Below, one piece after another: positions 4,060 through 25,975 of a stretch of DNA of 32,000 nt. The stretch is from Methanobacteriaceae archaeon (GTDB lineage: Archaea > Methanobacteriota > Methanobacteria > Methanobacteriales > Methanobacteriaceae), in NCBI GenBank assembly GCA_030016715.1, contig JASEJD010000012.1:12917-44916 (forward strand), in the 5' to 3' direction. Each line of letters begins with the position of its first letter. The first letter of the stretch is position 1. Position numbers and translations under genes: made by a program. Below the pieces are notes generated by a model. The model was given only the letters and a program-made list of their open reading frames with translations, did not search any database and was not told the origin of the DNA.

Positions 4060-4797
4060 ATGAATATAATGATTTATAGGAAGATAAAAATCAATGAAAC
4101 AAATATTCAGTTGAAAACTGATATTGAACCTCATGGTCTAACTGATTACATTGTAAAACTTAGAACATTAATCAAAAATTTTATTATAAGAAATCCGGAT
4201 TTTCTTACTAGTTTAGAACCATTGAAAATATATGAAGGCCCTTTAATAGTAAAGAAGATGTTAAGATCTGGTGTTATTGCAAATACCGGTCCAATGGCAG
4301 CTGTGGCTGGAACAATTGCTCAATTTTCAATGAATTATCTTCTAAATAAAGATTCAAAATATGTTATAGTGGATAATGGTGGAGATATTTCTCTAAAAAC
4401 CGATAAAGATGTTGTTATAGGACTATTTGCAGGTTTATCATCCCTTTCTGGAAAAATTGGGTTTAAAATTAAATCAAAGAAAACCCCTATGGGAATATGT
4501 ACATCTTCAGGTACTATAGGACATTCTATCAGTTTCGGAAGAGCCGATTCAGTTACTGTTTTTGCAGATGAGGCCAGCATCGCTGATGCCCTGGCCACTT
4601 CAATAGCTAACGAAGCAAATGGTGAATCTGATCAAGATACTGTTGAAAACTGCATATATTATGCTGAAAATTTTCGAGAATATATGAACGGAGCAGTGGT
4701 AATAGTTGGGGAATATGCAGGAACCATTGGAAAAATACCTAAAATGATACAGACTGATAAAAAAGTTGTTCTAGGGGATTTTTTTGATTTAATATAA
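4060..4797 (+). CDS. UPF0280 / ApbE-like family protein
   Basis: 245 aa. [21 protein letters not shown] and [25 protein letters not shown] resemble the ApbE-like UPF0280 proteins conserved in methanogens. The start could instead be the ATG at 4069. Confidence 0.6.
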
Positions 4798-4892
4798 AAA
4801 AAGGATTTAATGAAAAATTTTTAAATAGCCTCAGATCGCCCATCATTCATCACAAATCAGAGCTCATAGGGTTCATCATAGGCTTTAATTTT

Positions 4893-4928
4893 AAAAAAAA
4901 AGTATTTTGTGGCATTAATTTGCCACAA
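4893..4928 (-). terminator. hairpin + oligo-T terminator downstream of pan
   Basis: Perfect 8-bp stem TTGTGGCA (4907-4914) / TGCCACAA (4921-4928) with a 6-nt loop. On the minus strand it is followed by AATAC and a T9 run (A9 on plus, 4893-4901). It lies about 30 nt past the pan stop, between convergent genes. Confidence 0.55.
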
Positions 4929-4958
4929 TAAATTCCGGTATTTGATATAAGAGTTTAA

Positions 4959-6191
4959 TTATCCAAACATTACACCAGATTCTTTTTTAAATTCTTCTTC
5001 GCTTTCCATACCAACTATCTTATCAACAGCATCCATGAAATCATTCATAGTTACTATTTCTCTTTCTTCTCTTATAGCAAACATACCTGCTTCAGTACAT
5101 ATAGCTTTAACATCTGCCCCCGAGGCACCTTCTGTGATGGATGCAATTAGTTCCTTATCTACATCATCATCTAGAGACATTGTTTTGGTATGGATCTTTA
5201 GAATTTCCAATCTACCTTCTTCATTGGGTATTGGAACTTCTATGAAACGGTCAAATCTACCTGGCCGCAGTAATGCAGGGTCAAGTATATCTGGTCGGTT
5301 GGTTGCTGCTACAATACCAACATTTCCTCTCGCTTCAAATCCGTCCATTTCAGCTAATAATTGCATTAAAGTCCTTTGAACTTCCCTATCACCGCTTGTT
5401 GAACTTTTAAGTCGCTTAGCTGCAATAGCATCTATTTCATCAATGAATATTATGCTGGGTGCTTTTTCTTTAGCTAATTCAAATACTCCACGAACTAACC
5501 TTGCCCCTTCACCAATGTATTTTTTAACAAATTCTGATGCCACTATTTTTATAAATGTAGCATTAGTTTCATGGGCCACTGCTTTTCCTAGTAGTGTTTT
5601 ACCTGTTCCTGGAGGCCCATATAAAAGTACACCTTTTGGAGGTTCAATTCCAATATTTTCGAATAATTCTGGTTTCTTTAAAGGTAGTTCAACAGTTTCT
5701 TTAACTTCCAAAACCTGTTCAGTTAATCCACCGATCTTTTCGTATGAAACATCAGGTTTTTCGTCAACCTCCATGCCAGTAACAATAGGATCCTTCTCAG
5801 ATGGTAAAACATCTACTATACTAAAAGTTTGCTGGTTCAAAGCCACCCTTGCACCAGGTTCTAACAAGTCTTCATCTAAGAACCTTGAATATCCTATAAC
5901 AAAATGAGGGCCAGTACTGCTCTTCACAGCAATTCTTCCGTCTTCTAAAACCTCAGTAATCGTAGCAATTACCAGTGGCGGGGATCGAAATCTTTCTACT
6001 TCACCACGTAACGATTTAACTTCCCTATCTAATCTAATTTTTTCATTTTCAATCAAAACTTTATCTTTCTCAAGTTTTCTTAATTTCCACATGAGATTAC
6101 GCTTAGTCTTAGTGTTTTCCTCTTTAAGAATCCTAATTTCTTTTTTTAAATCTTCTATTTTTTTTAATGCAGTATTGGAGGAATTTTCCAT
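4959..6191 (-). CDS. pan: proteasome-activating nucleotidase (AAA+ ATPase PAN)
   Basis: 410 aa. Has an N-terminal coiled coil ([18 protein letters not shown]...), an OB segment, Walker [16 protein letters not shown], Walker [10 protein letters not shown] and a second region of homology. A strong SD, AGGAGTGATC, lies upstream of the ATG. Confidence 0.93.
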
Positions 6192-9174: not shown

Positions 9175-9546
9175 TTAGTTACTTTTTCTATAATTATTAG
9201 TTTTAGGAGAATAATAACCATCTAATTGCGCTAAATTCTCATATAATTCAGTTATATGATTATAATCATCATATTCTTCGCTTATTACTGTTATGTGGGC
9301 AGGAGGATGTATTTTTTTAATTTGCATGATGGTTTTTGTAGTTTCTGCTTTAACATTTATAATAGCAGAAATTCTAGATTCTGTTCTTAATTTTTGTTTT
9401 AAAATTTTTTCTGCAATTTTATCAGCTTTTTCGGATGAAATTAATTTAGGTTTTCCTATCAATTTCAAATTAGCATACCTCTCAACATCAGAAATAGAAT
9501 TTAAGAGCTTTGATTTATTCAAAGCTCTTATAAGAATTAATGACAT
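9175..9546 (-). CDS. hypothetical soluble protein, third gene of the envelope trio
   Basis: 123 aa with no TM segment. A GAGGT SD overlaps the TAG stop of the upstream gene 6 nt before the ATG, with a 10-nt intergenic gap. I recognise no family. Confidence 0.6.
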   Translation of the reverse strand: MSLILIRALNKSKLLNSISDVERYANLKLIGKPKLISSEKADKIAEKILKQKLRTESRISAIINVKAETTKTIMQIKKIHPPAHITVISEEYDDYNHITELYENLAQLDGYYSPKTNNYRKSN

Positions 9547-9556
9547 TTTTAAACCT

Positions 9557-10801
9557 CTATTTCAAGAATGAAGTAATTAAAGTGCTTCTAAATAATACTA
9601 GAAGAACTAAAACAAATCCTATTGCAGTTTGCATATTTCCGACTATGTCTATTATGTTCGAACTTATAGGTAGATTCCATGGTGGAGATGTTCTTCCATC
9701 CGGTAGTGGGTCAAAATAAACACCAACAGCACGGGAACTCTCTTTTACATTGATATCTTTAGGTTCAACATAATTCACACCAACTAAAAGACCATTATCT
9801 ATACCTCGATTAATATCTTTGGCTATCTCATTTACATTGTAACCATCTTTTTTAACCGATGCTTTTACAATTTCCGTGGTGGTTTGAACTACTCCAGATT
9901 CATCAGTTCCATAAACAGAAACCAAAACACTTTCTGGAGTTACTGTGATGGCATCACCCAAAGCTTCATATGCATAAACTGTTTTTAGTGGAGTTCCATC
10001 TATGGGACAAGTCATGTAATTATCTGCTGAAGGAAAACCAATACCCCATCCATCTTCAGGACAAACCTTACGATATTCTTGGTTCATTGGAAATCCTGTC
10101 TCATTAACCTTCTGAGGAGTAAACATATCTCCCGTACTTACACTGGAAACCAAGTTAACTGCACCACCACCATATTTTTCACCAGCTTCTATGGATACCT
10201 TACCAAATACTTCACTCATAATTTCAGTGGCTGGATATCCATCCCGGATCATTTTTCCGATCATTATGGCAGTTTCTCGACGAACCCGTGTTGCAGTACC
10301 ATATTGCGGATTTCCATGGGTGTTTCTAAGATGTATTATAGCCCCTTTAGTACCTGGGGGTAAAACAGCTAGCCCACCTGAACGTGGAGTTACAGTTATA
10401 ACTCCATCGTTTGATACTTCAACTACATAAACATCGAATGATCCACCTACTGCAGCTCCTCCAGTAGGAGATCCAGTCATTATACGAATTCCTGGAAAAG
10501 AACTTGCAGCGCTTGCTGCTTCAGGGATTGTTGAACCAGATTCTAACCTTCTTAAAGTCTCAACGATAGCCTTAAGACGTGGAGTGGTATTTCCTTCCCC
10601 CCCAGATAGAACTGCGAAATGGTTTTCTTTGGACTCTAAAAAAGTTACTGAAAACATGTTTGGTGCAAAAGACATGCTACCTGCTGCAGCACCATTAGGA
10701 TCCTTTCCAGTTGGATCGGTAATGATTACACAATTCATTGTCGCAGCAGATGTGTTCATAAACATTATAAGGGTGACTATTAATACTAAAATCTTCTTCA
10801 A
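9557..10801 (-). CDS. hypothetical exported protein with signal peptide and C-terminal TM anchor
   Basis: 414 aa with a TTG start embedded in TATTGAAG, a 4-nt overlap with the upstream stop. A GGGGGGAGG SD lies just upstream. Signal-like N-terminus (M)KKILVLIVTLIMFMNTSAA. The ectodomain is rich in Gly/Ala/Thr/Pro. C-terminal helix AIGFVLVLLVLFRSTLITSFLK. I recognise no family. Confidence 0.7.
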   Translation of the reverse strand: MKKILVLIVTLIMFMNTSAATMNCVIITDPTGKDPNGAAAGSMSFAPNMFSVTFLESKENHFAVLSGGEGNTTPRLKAIVETLRRLESGSTIPEAASAASSFPGIRIMTGSPTGGAAVGGSFDVYVVEVSNDGVITVTPRSGGLAVLPPGTKGAIIHLRNTHGNPQYGTATRVRRETAIMIGKMIRDGYPATEIMSEVFGKVSIEAGEKYGGGAVNLVSSVSTGDMFTPQKVNETGFPMNQEYRKVCPEDGWGIGFPSADNYMTCPIDGTPLKTVYAYEALGDAITVTPESVLVSVYGTDESGVVQTTTEIVKASVKKDGYNVNEIAKDINRGIDNGLLVGVNYVEPKDINVKESSRAVGVYFDPLPDGRTSPPWNLPISSNIIDIVGNMQTAIGFVLVLLVLFRSTLITSFLK

Positions 10802-11232
10802 TAGCCTCCCCCCTTAATATCGGCTGTAGCGAAATCCTCAATAACATTAATGGTTACTATGCCTGTTTTAGTATCAACTTTAACATCGGCTGCGGCAATT
10901 GGAGCTATACGGGTACCTGATATGGTTGTTCGCATTGCAAATTGTTCTGCAGTTGCAATAGCTTCATTTAATGGCAAACTACGTTTGGAGGTCACCAATG
11001 TATCGCCATCAATATAACTTCCAGGTCTGAATCCAGCTGCCGCCACATTGGCCCTGATAGAATCTGTAGGAACTACATCATTACCTTTAATTATAACTCC
11101 TGCAATAGGAATACCTTCTGGTGTTTCAGTAGATGACGCATAAGCTATATAAGTCATGAGTCTACCGGAAACAATTAACATAAATGCTAATATAAGAATA
11201 ATTAGCGTATCTCTTCTTACTTTAATGAACAT
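10798..11232 (-). CDS. hypothetical bitopic membrane protein (N-terminal anchor, about 110-aa external domain)
   Basis: 144 aa. ATG with GGTG 6 nt upstream. TM helix at about residues 9-31 (TLIILILAFMLIVSGRLMTYIAYA). It is translationally coupled to the next gene. Confidence 0.65.
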   Translation of the reverse strand: MFIKVRRDTLIILILAFMLIVSGRLMTYIAYASSTETPEGIPIAGVIIKGNDVVPTDSIRANVAAAGFRPGSYIDGDTLVTSKRSLPLNEAIATAEQFAMRTTISGTRIAPIAAADVKVDTKTGIVTINVIEDFATADIKGGGY

Positions 11233-11344
11233 TTTTTACACCGTTTTAATGTAAATTTATCTTAACACCTATAAAAACTTAATTTCATGTATAAATAAAC
11301 TATATGTGGTAATGAGCATCTAAATAGTAATATATTATTAAATG

Positions 11345-12895
11345 TTAATTTTGGTCCAAGTAGGATTTTATATGATCTTTAGATTTAAATGCAGCTTCAC
11401 CAAGACATACCACAACATCAGCATCAGTTTCAAATGATTTTTTCAATCCTTCTAATACTTGTTCAGGTGTAGCTCCTAAAAGCCCTTTTCTAAATTCTGT
11501 GGGAATATGGTCTGTGAATATAATCTTAGAACTTGAATCATACTCCAAAGCAACTTTTCTACTGTGAAAAGAAGCAGGGATTACATATTCAACTAGATTA
11601 ATAGCTCTTTCTAAAATCTCGAAATCTCCACTAATTCCTGATTCTGAAGCAATGGTGATTACTGCCGCAATTTTTTTATCATTATATATCTTTTTTAATT
11701 CATTTAGTACTGTCTGAACCCCGTAAGGATTATGGCCATAATCAATAATTATATCTTTTCCCTGGAAATTCTGAATATATTCTAAACGTCCAGGCACTCC
11801 TTCAAATGATTTTACTGCATCTACTATATCATCATCTGAAATTTTAAAAAATTCCATAGCAGCAATTATAGAACCAACTGCATTGTATACATTGTGCAAA
11901 CCCAATATATTTAACTGGATATTAAGAGTTTTTTCAGGAGTTTGTAGGTTGAAACTTTTTTCATCAATATTAGTTGCTATATACATAGGTTTAGGTCTTT
12001 TAAGGCCGCATTCACATTCGTAGTAGCCAACTCCTGCGATCGTTTCGTTTAATAAAATATTGCGACCACACCAACATTTTTTAAGGTTTTCTTGAGTATG
12101 TTCATAGTCAACACCAAAAGTTATTAATTGACCATGATAATTAAAAGATTCAACCATACCCCATAGTGTGGGATCATCAGAATTGATTATTAACTGTTTG
12201 CCTTGGAGGTGTTTAATTAATTCACCTTTAACTCGAGCATAATCTAAAAATTCTCGAACACCATCTAAGTGATCTGGGGTTATATTGGTAATAATACCAG
12301 ATAATGGTTGACATCGATCAATAATGAACTGTAAATCACCTTCATTACCCATAATACCCGTTTCAAGAACAGCCACATCACCCCTTAGACGGGCTTGTAA
12401 GGGAGGTATATACTCAGCATTTCCCTGTAAATTCTTAAAACCGTGTTCTACTGGTTTTAAACCTGCATATCTACATATATGTTTTAATAAGGTAACTGTA
12501 GTGGTTTTTCCATTGGTTCCAGTAACAAAAAAAACAGGTTTTTGTGGTTGAAACATTTCTAAGATGTCTTCCACACTGATAATTTTTGTTTTATGATAAT
12601 TTTTAGAATTTTCTATATTTTTTTGAATATCTCTAAATAGTTTAGATGATTTTGATAAACTTATAGGCGGTATTAAATAATCCAAGGAATCAAAGAAAGT
12701 TTTAGGATGATCTTTAAAGTATAATTCAACATCATAGTCATTTAAAGTGTAAATATAATCACAGTCTTTTCGGGATTTTATGTCGGTTCCTTTTACTTTA
12801 TAACCATTATCCATTATGACACGAGCTGCTAGGTTACCTGTGGCACCACATATCCCTATAATACCAAACCATTCATTCATTTTTGGCACATCCAT
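11345..12895 (-). CDS. Mur-ligase-family protein (MurC/MurT-like), putative pseudomurein peptide ligase
   Basis: 516 aa. MurC/D-like Rossmann N-terminus FGIIGICGATGNLAARVIMDNGYKVKGTD, P-loop FFVTGTNGKTTT, central-domain ITNITPDHLD and C-terminal DYGHNPYG. Carries an inserted CWCG...CECG cluster. The alternative start at ATG 12880 (MNEWFG...) has the better SD (GGATGTG + 6 nt). Confidence 0.85.
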   Translation of the reverse strand: MDVPKMNEWFGIIGICGATGNLAARVIMDNGYKVKGTDIKSRKDCDYIYTLNDYDVELYFKDHPKTFFDSLDYLIPPISLSKSSKLFRDIQKNIENSKNYHKTKIISVEDILEMFQPQKPVFFVTGTNGKTTTVTLLKHICRYAGLKPVEHGFKNLQGNAEYIPPLQARLRGDVAVLETGIMGNEGDLQFIIDRCQPLSGIITNITPDHLDGVREFLDYARVKGELIKHLQGKQLIINSDDPTLWGMVESFNYHGQLITFGVDYEHTQENLKKCWCGRNILLNETIAGVGYYECECGLKRPKPMYIATNIDEKSFNLQTPEKTLNIQLNILGLHNVYNAVGSIIAAMEFFKISDDDIVDAVKSFEGVPGRLEYIQNFQGKDIIIDYGHNPYGVQTVLNELKKIYNDKKIAAVITIASESGISGDFEILERAINLVEYVIPASFHSRKVALEYDSSSKIIFTDHIPTEFRKGLLGATPEQVLEGLKKSFETDADVVVCLGEAAFKSKDHIKSYLDQN

Positions 12896-14434: not shown

Positions 14435-15595
14435 TTAATCATATAAAACTTTTTCACATTCAGTCACATTATTTATAATCTTTGTAAGATTATCAAAAGT
14501 CTCCATCCAAGAATTCATGATAAACTCATCATTTATACCTTCTGCATCTTTAGAAGCTAGATCTATTCTTATAGTTGGTGAACATCCAGGCATTCCTAAT
14601 GCGGCTATCGTTACAATTTTGAAATCCCTTAAAAGAAGCATGGCAAAAATACATGCCACATCTTGGTTTGATAAATTCGTTTTAATATTTCTTTTATGTA
14701 ATTCATCCATTAAACCTTCCGCAGTAAGCATAATTCCCGTAGGAGTTTCGGTTATGTTGTTAAATTCTTTTTTTAATGCTTGATAAATATCTTTCTTCTT
14801 TTCAAAGCCTTGAAGCATTTTTTCTGGCGTAAAATCCTCCAAAGCCCTGACCATACCTGCGATAATAGGAGGTTGAGCTTCTAATCCGAATTCATAAGCC
14901 TTTGATTTTATCTTCTGAATTAATTCCTTACTACCTGCCATAATGCCCCCACGGGGACCATTCATTAGTTTATATGTACTGGTTATTACGATATCTGCAC
15001 CCATATCTAAGGCACGTGGCTGCTTATAAATAATTGTACGCAGTCTAGCACCAGATGCATCATCCACAAAAACTGGAATACCTCTAGATTTAGCTATTTC
15101 AACTACTTTAACAAAATCTTCCTTTTCAATGATATCATGGTCCATGGTTGAACCAGTGATCATAACCAGCGAAGTCTTTTCTGATATATGGAATTCATCA
15201 ATATTATCAAATTCCTTATAAGTTCCACCAACCAGTTTTATACTCCGGGGAGTGGCTGGGTGTGAAGGAGACTTTTGAAGATAATGTACTACTTCATCAC
15301 CTTTTTTCACCAGAGCCAGTATAGTTGCCAGTATCCCTGCTGTAGTTCGATTAAAAGCTAATATTTTCTCTCCACCTAGGTGTATTTTTCCTAACTCTTC
15401 CAAACGTTCTTTGAATATGGCTGGTCCCACATATGTTTCTAAAATTTCCATATCCTCTTTTTTTATAGGAAATCCGCCTCCCAGACCAGTTAGGTCATAA
15501 AGACTATTTCTCCCATTTTTTGAAATTTCTGATCTTATTATTCTAAGACCGGCCTCTCTTTTTTTTACCTCGTCTTCAGATGATAAAAGAAGCAT
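14435..15595 (-). CDS. fold-type-I PLP enzyme, SelA-like (MJ0158/UPF0425-type)
   Basis: GADIVITSTYKLMNGPRGGIMAGSKELIQKI parallels the SelA block [28 protein letters not shown], with the Lys of STYK as the predicted PLP lysine, and VDDASGA lies upstream of it. I prefer the ATG at 15595 (MLLLSSEDEVKKRE...) because GGAGGAGTGG sits just upstream. The track start at 15622 has no SD. Confidence 0.7.
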   Translation of the reverse strand: MLLLSSEDEVKKREAGLRIIRSEISKNGRNSLYDLTGLGGGFPIKKEDMEILETYVGPAIFKERLEELGKIHLGGEKILAFNRTTAGILATILALVKKGDEVVHYLQKSPSHPATPRSIKLVGGTYKEFDNIDEFHISEKTSLVMITGSTMDHDIIEKEDFVKVVEIAKSRGIPVFVDDASGARLRTIIYKQPRALDMGADIVITSTYKLMNGPRGGIMAGSKELIQKIKSKAYEFGLEAQPPIIAGMVRALEDFTPEKMLQGFEKKKDIYQALKKEFNNITETPTGIMLTAEGLMDELHKRNIKTNLSNQDVACIFAMLLLRDFKIVTIAALGMPGCSPTIRIDLASKDAEGINDEFIMNSWMETFDNLTKIINNVTECEKVLYD

Positions 15596-16160
15596 TTTTC
15601 CACTCCTCCATATTAAAGCCATTATTTTTAATTGTTTCAGATAAAATTGAATTCATTTTATCATAAAAATAACCATTTAGAAAGTTAAAATCTTTTTTAA
15701 GAGGATAAATGATCTCTTGTTTTGATTTTGAGTTTAAACCTATTTTTTTCATTTTATTTTTCCCTTGAACTTTTTAGAAGGTAATAAATCTTTCAGGATA
15801 AATAATCTGTTCATAATTCCATTCAGAGATAATAAATAATTCAAAGACTTTATTTAATTCATTGATTTACACTTTATTATTTAATAATAAATACTTAAAA
15901 TTAAAGAAGCTATTAAATTCAATTATTTTTGAAAATATTTAATAAATCCTAAATACTAGAGATTTACAGAAGATTTAATAATAAATAGATAAGCTTCTTC
16001 AATTAACTAATGATCCTAGATTTTCTTCTCTTCATATAATGTAATATTATAATATTTTAATGTTTGTATGTTTAAGTTATGTAGAGTTTAAGATACATTT
16101 TTTCTTCTAATTATTAATTAACATTTAGTTATTATGGTATATAAGTTATAATAAATATTT

Positions 16161-25802: not shown

Positions 25803-25825
25803 GAATGAATCTAAAATCATGGTAT

Positions 25826-25899
25826 GCGGCGTTAGTCCAGTCTGGTTAAGACTCTGGCCTGCCACGCCAGTGACCCGGGTTCAAATCCCGGACGCCGCA
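25826..25899 (+). tRNA. tRNA-Gly (anticodon GCC)
   Basis: 74 nt. Acceptor GCGGCGT/ACGCCGC, anticodon stem CTGGC/GCCAG with loop CTGCCAC, T arm CCGGG-TTCAAAT-CCCGG and discriminator A. No CCA is encoded. Confidence 0.93.
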
Positions 25900-25901
25900 T
25901 C

Positions 25902-25975
<74 letters not shown>

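Follow-up and report, generated by a model that had tools for sequence, protein, structure and literature searches.

We analyzed three genes encoded on the minus strand of a 32,000-nucleotide stretch of contig JASEJD010000012.1 from a Methanobacteriaceae archaeon (the whole stretch is referred to below as the window). Gene 1 and gene 2 encode a pair of membrane-associated proteins of the Mfer763 and Mfer764 families, respectively, and gene 3, which follows them, encodes a DUF356 protein. On the basis of predicted structures, gene 2 is proposed to specify an exported and membrane-held transpeptidase of the Thr-type N-terminal nucleophile (Ntn) class that would act on the pseudomurein stem peptide, and gene 1 is proposed to specify its POTRA scaffold; this reading is put forward tentatively, as a possibility and not as the expected outcome. 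The pair is already known as two curated families without an assigned function, and the idea that it is a candidate for envelope assembly has been published. What is added here is a predicted Ntn domain with a Thr that would be unmasked by signal peptidase, a predicted POTRA domain in the partner protein, a quantitative account of synteny and conservation, and the constant presence of a DUF356 neighbor. The three genes are as follows.

10798-11232, minus strand: gene 1, 144 aa, ATG start, Mfer763 family, single-pass (bitopic) membrane protein
9557-10801, minus strand: gene 2, 414 aa, TTG start, Mfer764 family
9175-9546, minus strand: gene 3, 123 aa, ATG start, DUF356, soluble

Genes 1 and 2 belong to curated families of the pseudomurein cluster

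Membership of the three proteins in defined families was established by profile searches. Gene 1 matched NCBIfam NF053641 (Mfer763 family) with 236.2 bits over residues 1-136 (curated cut-off of 170), gene 2 matched NCBIfam NF053642 (Mfer764 family) with 698.1 bits over residues 20-412 (curated cut-off of 560), and gene 3 matched Pfam PF04009 (DUF356) with 123.1 bits (E 7.2e-36, gathering threshold of 29.9) and coverage of 105 of the 106 profile positions. An earlier reading of this DNA, made from the letters and open reading frames (the sequence-only reading), had been unable to place the three proteins in any family, a statement that is superseded by these matches, all of which are above the respective cut-offs. 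Homologs numbered 344 for gene 1 and 689 for gene 2, with best E-values of 4e-81 and 1e-263, respectively, and of 8e-70 for gene 3, which was also found to be 100% identical to a protein from a Methanobacteriaceae metagenome-assembled genome (MAG). Since hundreds of homologs exist, the three genes are real.

The same pair has been described in Methanothermus fervidus, in which Mfer763 and Mfer764 are two highly conserved transmembrane-domain proteins, listed without function, that are encoded downstream of the ligases in cluster 2 (Subedi et al. 2021, PMC10117817). It was later grouped into cluster A as OG0001472 (one transmembrane segment) and OG0001162 (signal peptide), neither of which has a known domain and both of which occur only in Methanobacteriales and Methanopyrales (Lupo et al. 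2025, PMC11915815). These two studies define the pseudomurein biosynthesis cluster of which the region under study forms the conserved 3' end. Order, strand and terminal location in the Ddl-like/MraY/pMur ligase cluster are the same as for Mfer763/Mfer764 of M. fervidus; by comparison to that cluster, pMurD1, pMurC and a pyridoxal phosphate (PLP)-dependent enzyme are inserted here, so that the pair comes after pMurC instead of pMurE. No fold or function for Mfer763 or Mfer764 is given in the Subedi 2021 and Lupo 2025 papers, in a 2022 preprint or in a 2026 paper on ligase enzymology, and literature searches by locus tag, by accession and for an Ntn or POTRA proposal for these two proteins found nothing. 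In the literature found, as the sequence-only reading had stated, no enzyme is assigned to the extracytoplasmic steps of pseudomurein assembly, and no transglycosylase or polymerase is identified.

Gene 2 is predicted to be an exported protein with an Ntn-type domain

Hydropathy of all three proteins was calculated by the Kyte-Doolittle method with 19-residue windows (KD19), and structures were modeled with AlphaFold2 (AF2). The layout of hydrophobic segments anticipated by the sequence-only reading was borne out, with one N-terminal segment in gene 1, one at each terminus of gene 2 and none in gene 3. In gene 2 these segments span residues 3-23 (KD19 of 2.05) and 383-414 (2.20). The AF2 model of gene 2, with a mean predicted local distance difference test score (pLDDT) of 78 and a predicted template modeling score (pTM) of 0.68, was combined with the family alignment to delineate the following features.

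10742-10801, minus strand: signal peptide of gene 2, residues 1-20, ending in S-A-A, helical in the AF2 model
10739-10741, minus strand: codon (ACA) of Thr21, predicted to begin the mature protein and proposed to act as its N-terminal nucleophile
10157-10741, minus strand: Ntn-hydrolase-like domain of gene 2, residues 21-215, AF2 pLDDT mostly 80-96
9998-10063, minus strand: zinc-ribbon-like knuckle pair of gene 2, residues 247-268, of the form C-x2-[C/D] ... C-x2-[C/D], here C-P-E-D and C-P-I-D
9677-9976, minus strand: C-terminal alpha/beta domain of gene 2, residues 276-375, AF2 pLDDT 72-89
9560-9655, minus strand: C-terminal hydrophobic helix of gene 2, residues 383-414, AF2 helix 381-413 with low pLDDT

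The signal peptide was found to be poorly conserved, with a mean column conservation of 0.48 compared to 0.80 in the mature part of the protein. SignalP assignments of Sec/SPI or Tat/SPI are listed for 5/5 reference orthologs in the supplement of Lupo 2025 (PMC11915815). By contrast to the signal peptide as a whole, the residues around the predicted cleavage site follow a common motif, [S/A/V/I]-x-A before the cut and T-x-N after it, in 119 of 120 homologs, all with Ala at position -1, and the motif is also present in a divergent homolog described below (locus L081). Thr21 is the start of the first strand in the AF2 model (E20-27), and the invariant Thr is followed by an invariant Asn and by Asp-Pro.

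The secondary structure elements of residues 21-215 were arranged in the order of four strands, two helices, four strands, two helices and one strand, an order that is canonical for proteasome-type Ntn subunits. When the gene 2 model was compared by Foldseek to the Protein Data Bank (PDB), the top matches were taspase-1, DUF1028, Anbu, aspartylglucosaminidase, the mycobacterial proteasome beta subunit, EgtC and the glutaminase domain of GlmS. The best match, to taspase-1, had an E-value of 6.5e-4; the best probability was 1.00, and the best target-normalized TM-score was 0.52 (2imh_B, DUF1028). A viral structure library returned weak Ntn-type matches only (Anbu-like and GlmS) and nothing specific. 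MSTV1-like viruses of Methanobrevibacter smithii have been annotated with an Ntn-hydrolase gene (PMC11375127). Taken together, the model and its structural matches suggest that the N-terminal domain of gene 2 has an Ntn-hydrolase fold. Thr21, as residue 1 of the Ntn first strand, therefore sits where Ntn enzymes carry their nucleophile, provided that cleavage occurs.

Gene 2 was compared to the Thr-type Ntn hydrolases (proteasome beta/HslV/Anbu, taspase-1/aspartylglucosaminidase, gamma-glutamyltranspeptidase and DUF1028), with which it shares the predicted four-layer alpha-beta-beta-alpha fold, the strand/helix order and a predicted mature N-terminal Thr that opens the first strand. It differs from these enzymes in having no detectable sequence similarity to them, in that signal peptidase, rather than self-cleavage, would unmask its Thr, and in that it would lie outside the cytoplasm on a membrane tether and has, in addition, a zinc-ribbon-like element and a C-terminal domain. 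Within the zinc-ribbon-like element C247 and C265 are invariant, and both C-x2-C and C-x2-D variants occur across the Mfer764 family; the protein in the window has C-x2-D in both knuckles, a pattern that would fit the binding of a metal by Cys2Asp2 or else, in a protein that is exported, the decay of a zinc site. The C-terminal domain (residues 276-375) had no database match.

The C-terminal helix of gene 2, in which 9 of 30 positions are invariant and which is preceded by an invariant L-P, is probably a membrane anchor, as judged from its hydropathy and conservation. The tool used by Lupo 2025 counted 0 transmembrane segments for gene 2 orthologs (PMC11915815). An invariant W-N-L-P is located a few residues before this helix and, together with the helix and an Arg (residues 375-414, 9560-9679), superficially resembles a sortase signal; a sortase-E-like gene is among those listed as specific to pseudomurein archaea (Lupo 2025, PMC11915815). 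A sortase-type sorting signal in gene 2 was judged unlikely, the C-terminal helix being too conserved for a signal that is discarded.

Gene 1 is predicted to span the membrane once and to have a POTRA-like domain

Two features were delineated for gene 1.

11137-11214, minus strand: transmembrane helix of gene 1, residues 7-32, KD19 maximum of 2.24, AF2 helix 7-35
10834-11106, minus strand: extracytoplasmic POTRA-like domain of gene 1, residues 43-133, of the order beta-alpha-(hairpin)-alpha-beta-beta

The AF2 model of gene 1 (pLDDT 78.6) was composed of strand E45-49, helices H56-65 and H88-100, and strands E112-119 and E125-132, with an inserted hairpin. By Foldseek against the PDB, almost all matches were to POTRA domains (BamA/TamA/CdiB/Omp85), with a best E-value of 9.7e-3 and a probability of 0.98. 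Similarly, the gene 1 family profile matched POTRA2 of Haemophilus BamA (6j09_A) at an E-value of 1.3e-4 by way of the typical I-x-x-I-x-I-x-G-N start of this domain. From the model and these matches, gene 1 is predicted to be a single-pass protein with an outward-facing POTRA-like domain. The first 35 residues include 12 invariant positions, and thus the N-terminal helix appears to be retained and functional and not a cleaved signal. As the membrane helices of gene 1 and gene 2 are both unusually conserved, specific contacts within the membrane are suggested.

In its layout gene 1 resembles FtsQ/DivIB, with which it shares a short cytoplasmic N-terminus, one transmembrane helix and a POTRA domain outside the membrane, as well as a gene that adjoins mur ligase and ddl genes; the bacterial FtsQ/DivIB gene sits beside murC and ddl. 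When aligned by hhalign to E. coli FtsQ (the query sequence was checked to be identical to 8hhf_Q), gene 1 was in register from the end of the transmembrane helix into strand 1 of the POTRA domain, but the alignment was not significant (probability of 1.3%), and gene 1 was not filed as an FtsQ homolog. Gene 1 also differs from FtsQ/DivIB in being 144 aa in length and ending ~10 residues past the POTRA-like domain, without the FtsB/FtsL-binding beta-domain, and in having its best sequence and fold matches to Omp85-type and not FtsQ-type POTRA domains. By analogy, it is proposed to work like an FtsQ-type scaffold without being classed as FtsQ.

Genes 1 and 2 are strictly syntenic and of narrow distribution

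In a species-level genome collection, 220 loci were found to have a relative of gene 2, and 80 of these, chosen by gene 2 similarity, were retrieved and analyzed. Genes 1 and 2 were adjacent and on the same strand at all 80 loci, and the gene directly upstream of the pair was pMurE or pMurC in every locus having upstream DNA. When the gene 2 profile was searched against 1.84 billion representative proteins, 65 matches were detected at E <= 1e-3; these corresponded to about two full-length clusters at 50% identity with the addition of fragments and chimeric gene calls, and represent one narrow family. A 633-aa protein (P0332, E 8e-6) found in the search of representative proteins is a repetitive, Thr/Val-rich surface protein and was taken as a compositional artifact.

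The named sources of gene 1 and gene 2 relatives were all Methanobacteria-type, with the exception of one MAG labeled 'Methanomicrobiales archaeon' (locus L001, JBNGDB010000017.1). This locus includes a complete pMur cluster with 65-91% protein identity to the window. As the contig holds the whole pMur cluster, it was rejected as evidence of homologs outside pseudomurein archaea, and its taxonomic label or binning is probably wrong. Synteny was also examined in a GC-rich metagenomic lineage that is ~50% identical (locus L081), and here the order of ATP-grasp, MraY, ligase, gene 1 and gene 2 was found to be kept. The start of the gene 2 homolog at this locus (4378-5848) had been mis-called, and the corrected N-terminus is a signal peptide ending in ASA and followed by TFN. 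The gene after gene 2 at this locus encodes a polytopic membrane protein, not DUF356, and matches OG0000796 of Lupo in Methanopyrus.

Across the same loci, the median identity was 68.6% for gene 1 and 67.2% for gene 2 (79 loci); the ligases, at 51-54%, and MraY, at 63%, were lower. By this sequence comparison no other protein of the cluster is as conserved as genes 1 and 2, with the caveat that the loci were selected by gene 2 similarity.

The sequence-only reading had suggested that the three genes be examined for phyletic profile, for synteny with Mur-type ligases and for a match to an unrelated characterized family. No homologs in archaea lacking pseudomurein were present among the relatives found, linkage to the ligases was conserved in all 80 genome loci and in L081, and no confident match of the pair to such a family was found. 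The proposal, made in the sequence-only reading, of an envelope candidate linked to the ligases is retained in part: the pair of membrane or exported proteins is universally linked (80/80 loci) and narrow in distribution, and the predicted fold of gene 2 is one associated with amide bonds, in keeping with a role on the stem peptide, but the idea had already been published and the function is a proposed one.

A proposed role in pseudomurein cross-linking

In the mechanism that we propose, gene 2 would be exported through its Sec-type signal peptide, and cleavage by signal peptidase after the conserved A-x-A and before the Thr would leave the invariant Thr as residue 1 of the Ntn-fold domain. 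The conserved C-terminal helix would keep the protein at the outer face of the membrane. From this position, the Thr would attack an amide bond in the pseudomurein stem peptide to form an acyl-enzyme ester, and the acyl group would then be moved to the amine of a neighboring stem, resulting in a cross-linking transpeptidation. Gene 1 may serve as a membrane scaffold or partner via its POTRA domain, as does FtsQ for bacterial wall synthases. Because no ATP is available outside the membrane, a cross-link formed there has to draw on the cleavage of an amide bond that already exists. Thr-Ntn enzymes act through an acyl-enzyme and can transpeptidate, as exemplified by gamma-glutamyltranspeptidase and by peptide splicing in the proteasome, and in classical proposals for the pseudomurein pathway a terminal Ala is removed during maturation.

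Acyl-enzyme transpeptidation outside the membrane, as proposed here, would be shared with the penicillin-binding proteins (PBPs) and the L,D-transpeptidases (YkuD), which differ in having another fold and in the use of a Ser or Cys nucleophile where gene 2 would have a Thr with a free alpha-amine. Searches of Pfam and NCBIfam at E up to 1 found no transpeptidase, YkuD or transglutaminase match for genes 1, 2 or 3, and orthologs of PBPs and L,D-transpeptidases are absent from these archaea (Subedi 2021, PMC10117817). In its fullest form, the proposal would make Mfer764 the missing cross-linking enzyme and would place beside the Ser-PBPs and the Cys-L,D-transpeptidases a third, independently derived solution to wall transpeptidation, one that is based on an Ntn fold with a signal-peptidase-unmasked Thr and that works with a POTRA protein which is maybe a remnant of a bacterial ftsQ acquired with the mur genes; this broader claim we regard as conceivable and rather doubtful.

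To our knowledge, the extracellular polymerization and cross-linking of pseudomurein have had no enzyme assigned to them since the pathway was sketched in ~1990. An N-terminal Thr nucleophile in gene 2 would render a T-to-A variant inactive and would allow for labeling by proteasome-type warheads. If true, gene 2 would represent a new class of wall transpeptidase and a specific, surface-exposed target against rumen and gut methanogens; if wrong, the pair would still be the best-placed unknown of the pseudomurein pathway.

A number of observations weigh against the assignment of gene 2 as a Thr-Ntn transpeptidase with gene 1 as its scaffold. No Ntn family was detected when gene 2 of the window and 35 family members were searched against Pfam at E up to 1, the gene 2 family profile had no match when compared to all PDB sequences, and hhalign of gene 2 to E. 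coli HslV gave a probability of 0.15%. The Ntn fold is derived from a single AF2 model built on a shallow alignment (Neff ~1.8), and the Foldseek E-values are marginal, at 6.5e-4 for the best. Cleavage before Thr21 is predicted and not observed. Autoproteolytic activation, which is a criterion of the Ntn superfamily, was not evident, as the Thr directly follows a typical signal peptide with no propeptide; this does not exclude an Ntn fold, since some Ntn enzymes are unmasked by other routes, namely the removal of Met or of a signal peptide. For gene 1, the Pfam POTRA profile gave 14.8 bits (E 0.049), below the gathering threshold of 21.3, with a weak match in 5 of 30 family members, and the hhalign comparison to E. 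coli FtsQ noted above had an E-value of 0.041. The literature favors exported transglutaminases for the Glu-Lys cross-link, and the Gln donor required by transglutaminases could come from the MurT/GatD homologs of these archaea.

The evidence, moreover, does not distinguish synthesis from hydrolysis. Gene 2 may be a peptidase or amidase that trims the stem peptide, e.g., by taking off the terminal Ala, or that opens up the wall so that cells can grow and separate, with gene 1 controlling the place and time of its action. Most Ntn enzymes are hydrolases, the evidence from the fold is the same as for a transpeptidase, and a tethered and partnered hydrolase would need strict control, which is in accord with the conserved membrane helices. 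However, wall hydrolases are usually redundant, fast-evolving and scattered, whereas gene 2 is one conserved gene whose location does not change among the loci found and which is counted as the most conserved member of the cluster; a hydrolytic function was considered unlikely.

To a similarly low degree, the two proteins may form a non-catalytic scaffold that positions the machinery of synthesis or division, with the Ntn-like domain as a pseudo-enzyme or binding module. The FtsQ layout of gene 1 (a transmembrane helix and POTRA domain), its ftsQ-like position relative to the mur and ddl genes, the general role of POTRA domains in mediating protein contacts and the lack of a sequence-level catalytic signature in gene 2 are all consistent with a scaffold. 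By contrast, a mere binding module is hard to reconcile with a predicted cleavage that exposes an invariant Thr and, after it, an invariant Asn and Asp-Pro, as residues just past signal-peptide sites normally vary freely.

Less probable again is a role of the pair elsewhere outside the cytoplasm, for example in glycan polymerization, in release from the undecaprenyl carrier or in an export step tied to MraY or a flippase, while transglutaminases form the cross-link. The absence of an identified pseudomurein transglycosylase or polymerase and the presence of MraY in the same cluster are in its favor, and exported transglutaminases of group OG0000044, which are unlinked to the cluster, are the best candidate for cross-linking according to Lupo 2025 (PMC11915815). 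However, neither model resembles a glycosyltransferase, SEDS protein or phosphatase, and Ntn is an amide-bond fold. The transglutaminase-like proteins of Methanobacteria (Leahy 2010; OG0000044 of Lupo) compete with gene 2 as cross-linking candidates and are likewise exported; they differ in being unlinked to biosynthetic clusters, multi-copy and in many cases adhesin-like, and gene 2 is without transglutaminase similarity. Finally, a module unrelated to pseudomurein, i.e., a lineage-specific envelope or protein-processing system that shares the ligase operon, would fit the lack of direct functional evidence tying the pair to pseudomurein and the report of DUF356 outside pseudomurein archaea in Borg elements, but is very improbable given a gene order behind the ligases that is invariant in all loci, the ~50%-identical GC-rich lineage included, and a distribution that coincides with pseudomurein.

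Gene 3 is a constant DUF356 neighbor

Gene 3 was found to be devoid of hydrophobic segments by KD19 and to be soluble and Lys-rich. DUF356 was located downstream of gene 2, on the same strand, at 79 of the 80 genome loci, occasionally at a distance of 2-6 kb. In a reciprocal test that started from DUF356 in metagenome contigs, gene 2 was just upstream at all 75 loci with upstream DNA (75/75), with a median gap of 52 nt. This neighbor is not mentioned in the pseudomurein papers found. DUF356 has also been reported in Borg elements of Methanoperedens, outside pseudomurein archaea; because of this occurrence, and because it is replaced in the GC-rich lineage, its tie to pseudomurein is one of synteny only. 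The sequence-only reading had counted gene 3 as part of an envelope module, which does not agree with a soluble DUF356 protein that is also reported in Borg elements, and from its sequence gene 3 is better described as a cytoplasmic companion than as an envelope protein.

The family alignment of gene 3 revealed an invariant K-I-H-P-P-A-H motif, and no relative was found among PDB sequences. The invariant core of this motif, I-H-P-P-A-H (residues 79-84, 9295-9312), and the invariant residues Asp20, Arg23 and Glu91 look like a metal or catalytic site.

Translational coupling, base composition and genomic context

The structure of the three genes and their translational coupling were established from the open reading frames and by direct reading of the DNA, with the following signals.

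11233-11344, minus strand: spacer from the pMurC stop to the gene 1 start, 112 nt, AT-rich, read directly
10805-10813, minus strand: ribosome-binding site of gene 2, GGGGGGAGG, formed by the final K-G-G-G-Y codons of gene 1, read directly
9553-9557, minus strand: ribosome-binding site of gene 3, GAGGT, overlapping the gene 2 stop, read directly

The spacer, which separates gene 1 from the upstream ligase pMurC (11345-12895), has TATA-like runs and a GGTG 10 nt ahead of the gene 1 ATG. The TGA stop of gene 1 (10798-10800) overlaps the TTG start of gene 2 (10799-10801) in a 4-nt TTGA, and the TAG stop of gene 2 is at 9557-9559, with 6 nt between the GAGGT and the ATG of gene 3 (9546). The coordinates, lengths and strand of the three genes, the 112-nt gap after the ligase, the overlap of genes 1 and 2 and both Shine-Dalgarno sequences were all as described in the sequence-only reading. 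The same reading had remarked on the Gly/Ala/Thr/Pro/Val richness and higher G+C of genes 1 and 2, both of which were measured: these five residues account for 42-43% of genes 1 and 2, compared to 27-28% of the three pMur ligases and <=38% of any other gene of the window, and the GC content of the two genes is 0.39, compared to 0.32 for the window. The excess was confined to codon positions 1 and 2, with a third-position GC content (GC3) of 0.22-0.23 that is equal to that of the neighbors. Thus, the higher GC reflects the composition of Gly/Ala/Thr/Pro/Val-rich proteins and not foreign DNA, and horizontal transfer was rejected as its source.

Ahead of gene 1 on the same strand, in order of transcription, are a Ddl-like ATP-grasp protein (NF053643), an archaeal MraY (NF053644), pMurE, the PLP enzyme (MJ0158 family), pMurD1 and pMurC. 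Every pseudomurein gene of the window was above its curated NCBIfam cut-off. The pMurD1 and pMurC genes overlap by 23 nt (12873-12895), which indicates translational coupling of the two ligases as read from the sequence. The gene for the PLP-dependent enzyme (TIGR03576/MJ0158 family) is at 14435-15622 on the minus strand, between pMurE and pMurD1. Among the 80 related loci, a PLP gene was present at that position only in the closest relative, L001, and it may have been inserted in this lineage specifically or may provide an amino acid as a substrate. A very AT-rich non-coding spacer of 540 nt (15623-16160), with a GC content of 0.22, lies between pMurE and the PLP gene, in which no open reading frame of >58 aa and no Rfam match were found; this spacer splits the pseudomurein cluster and probably separates transcription units.

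The remaining genes of the window are Methanobacteria housekeeping genes, including PAN, LonB, CobQ, aMBF1, NikR, HypB and two tRNA-Gly genes. The latter (GCC and UCC anticodons) are in tandem and directly abut one another at 25825-25975 on the plus strand.

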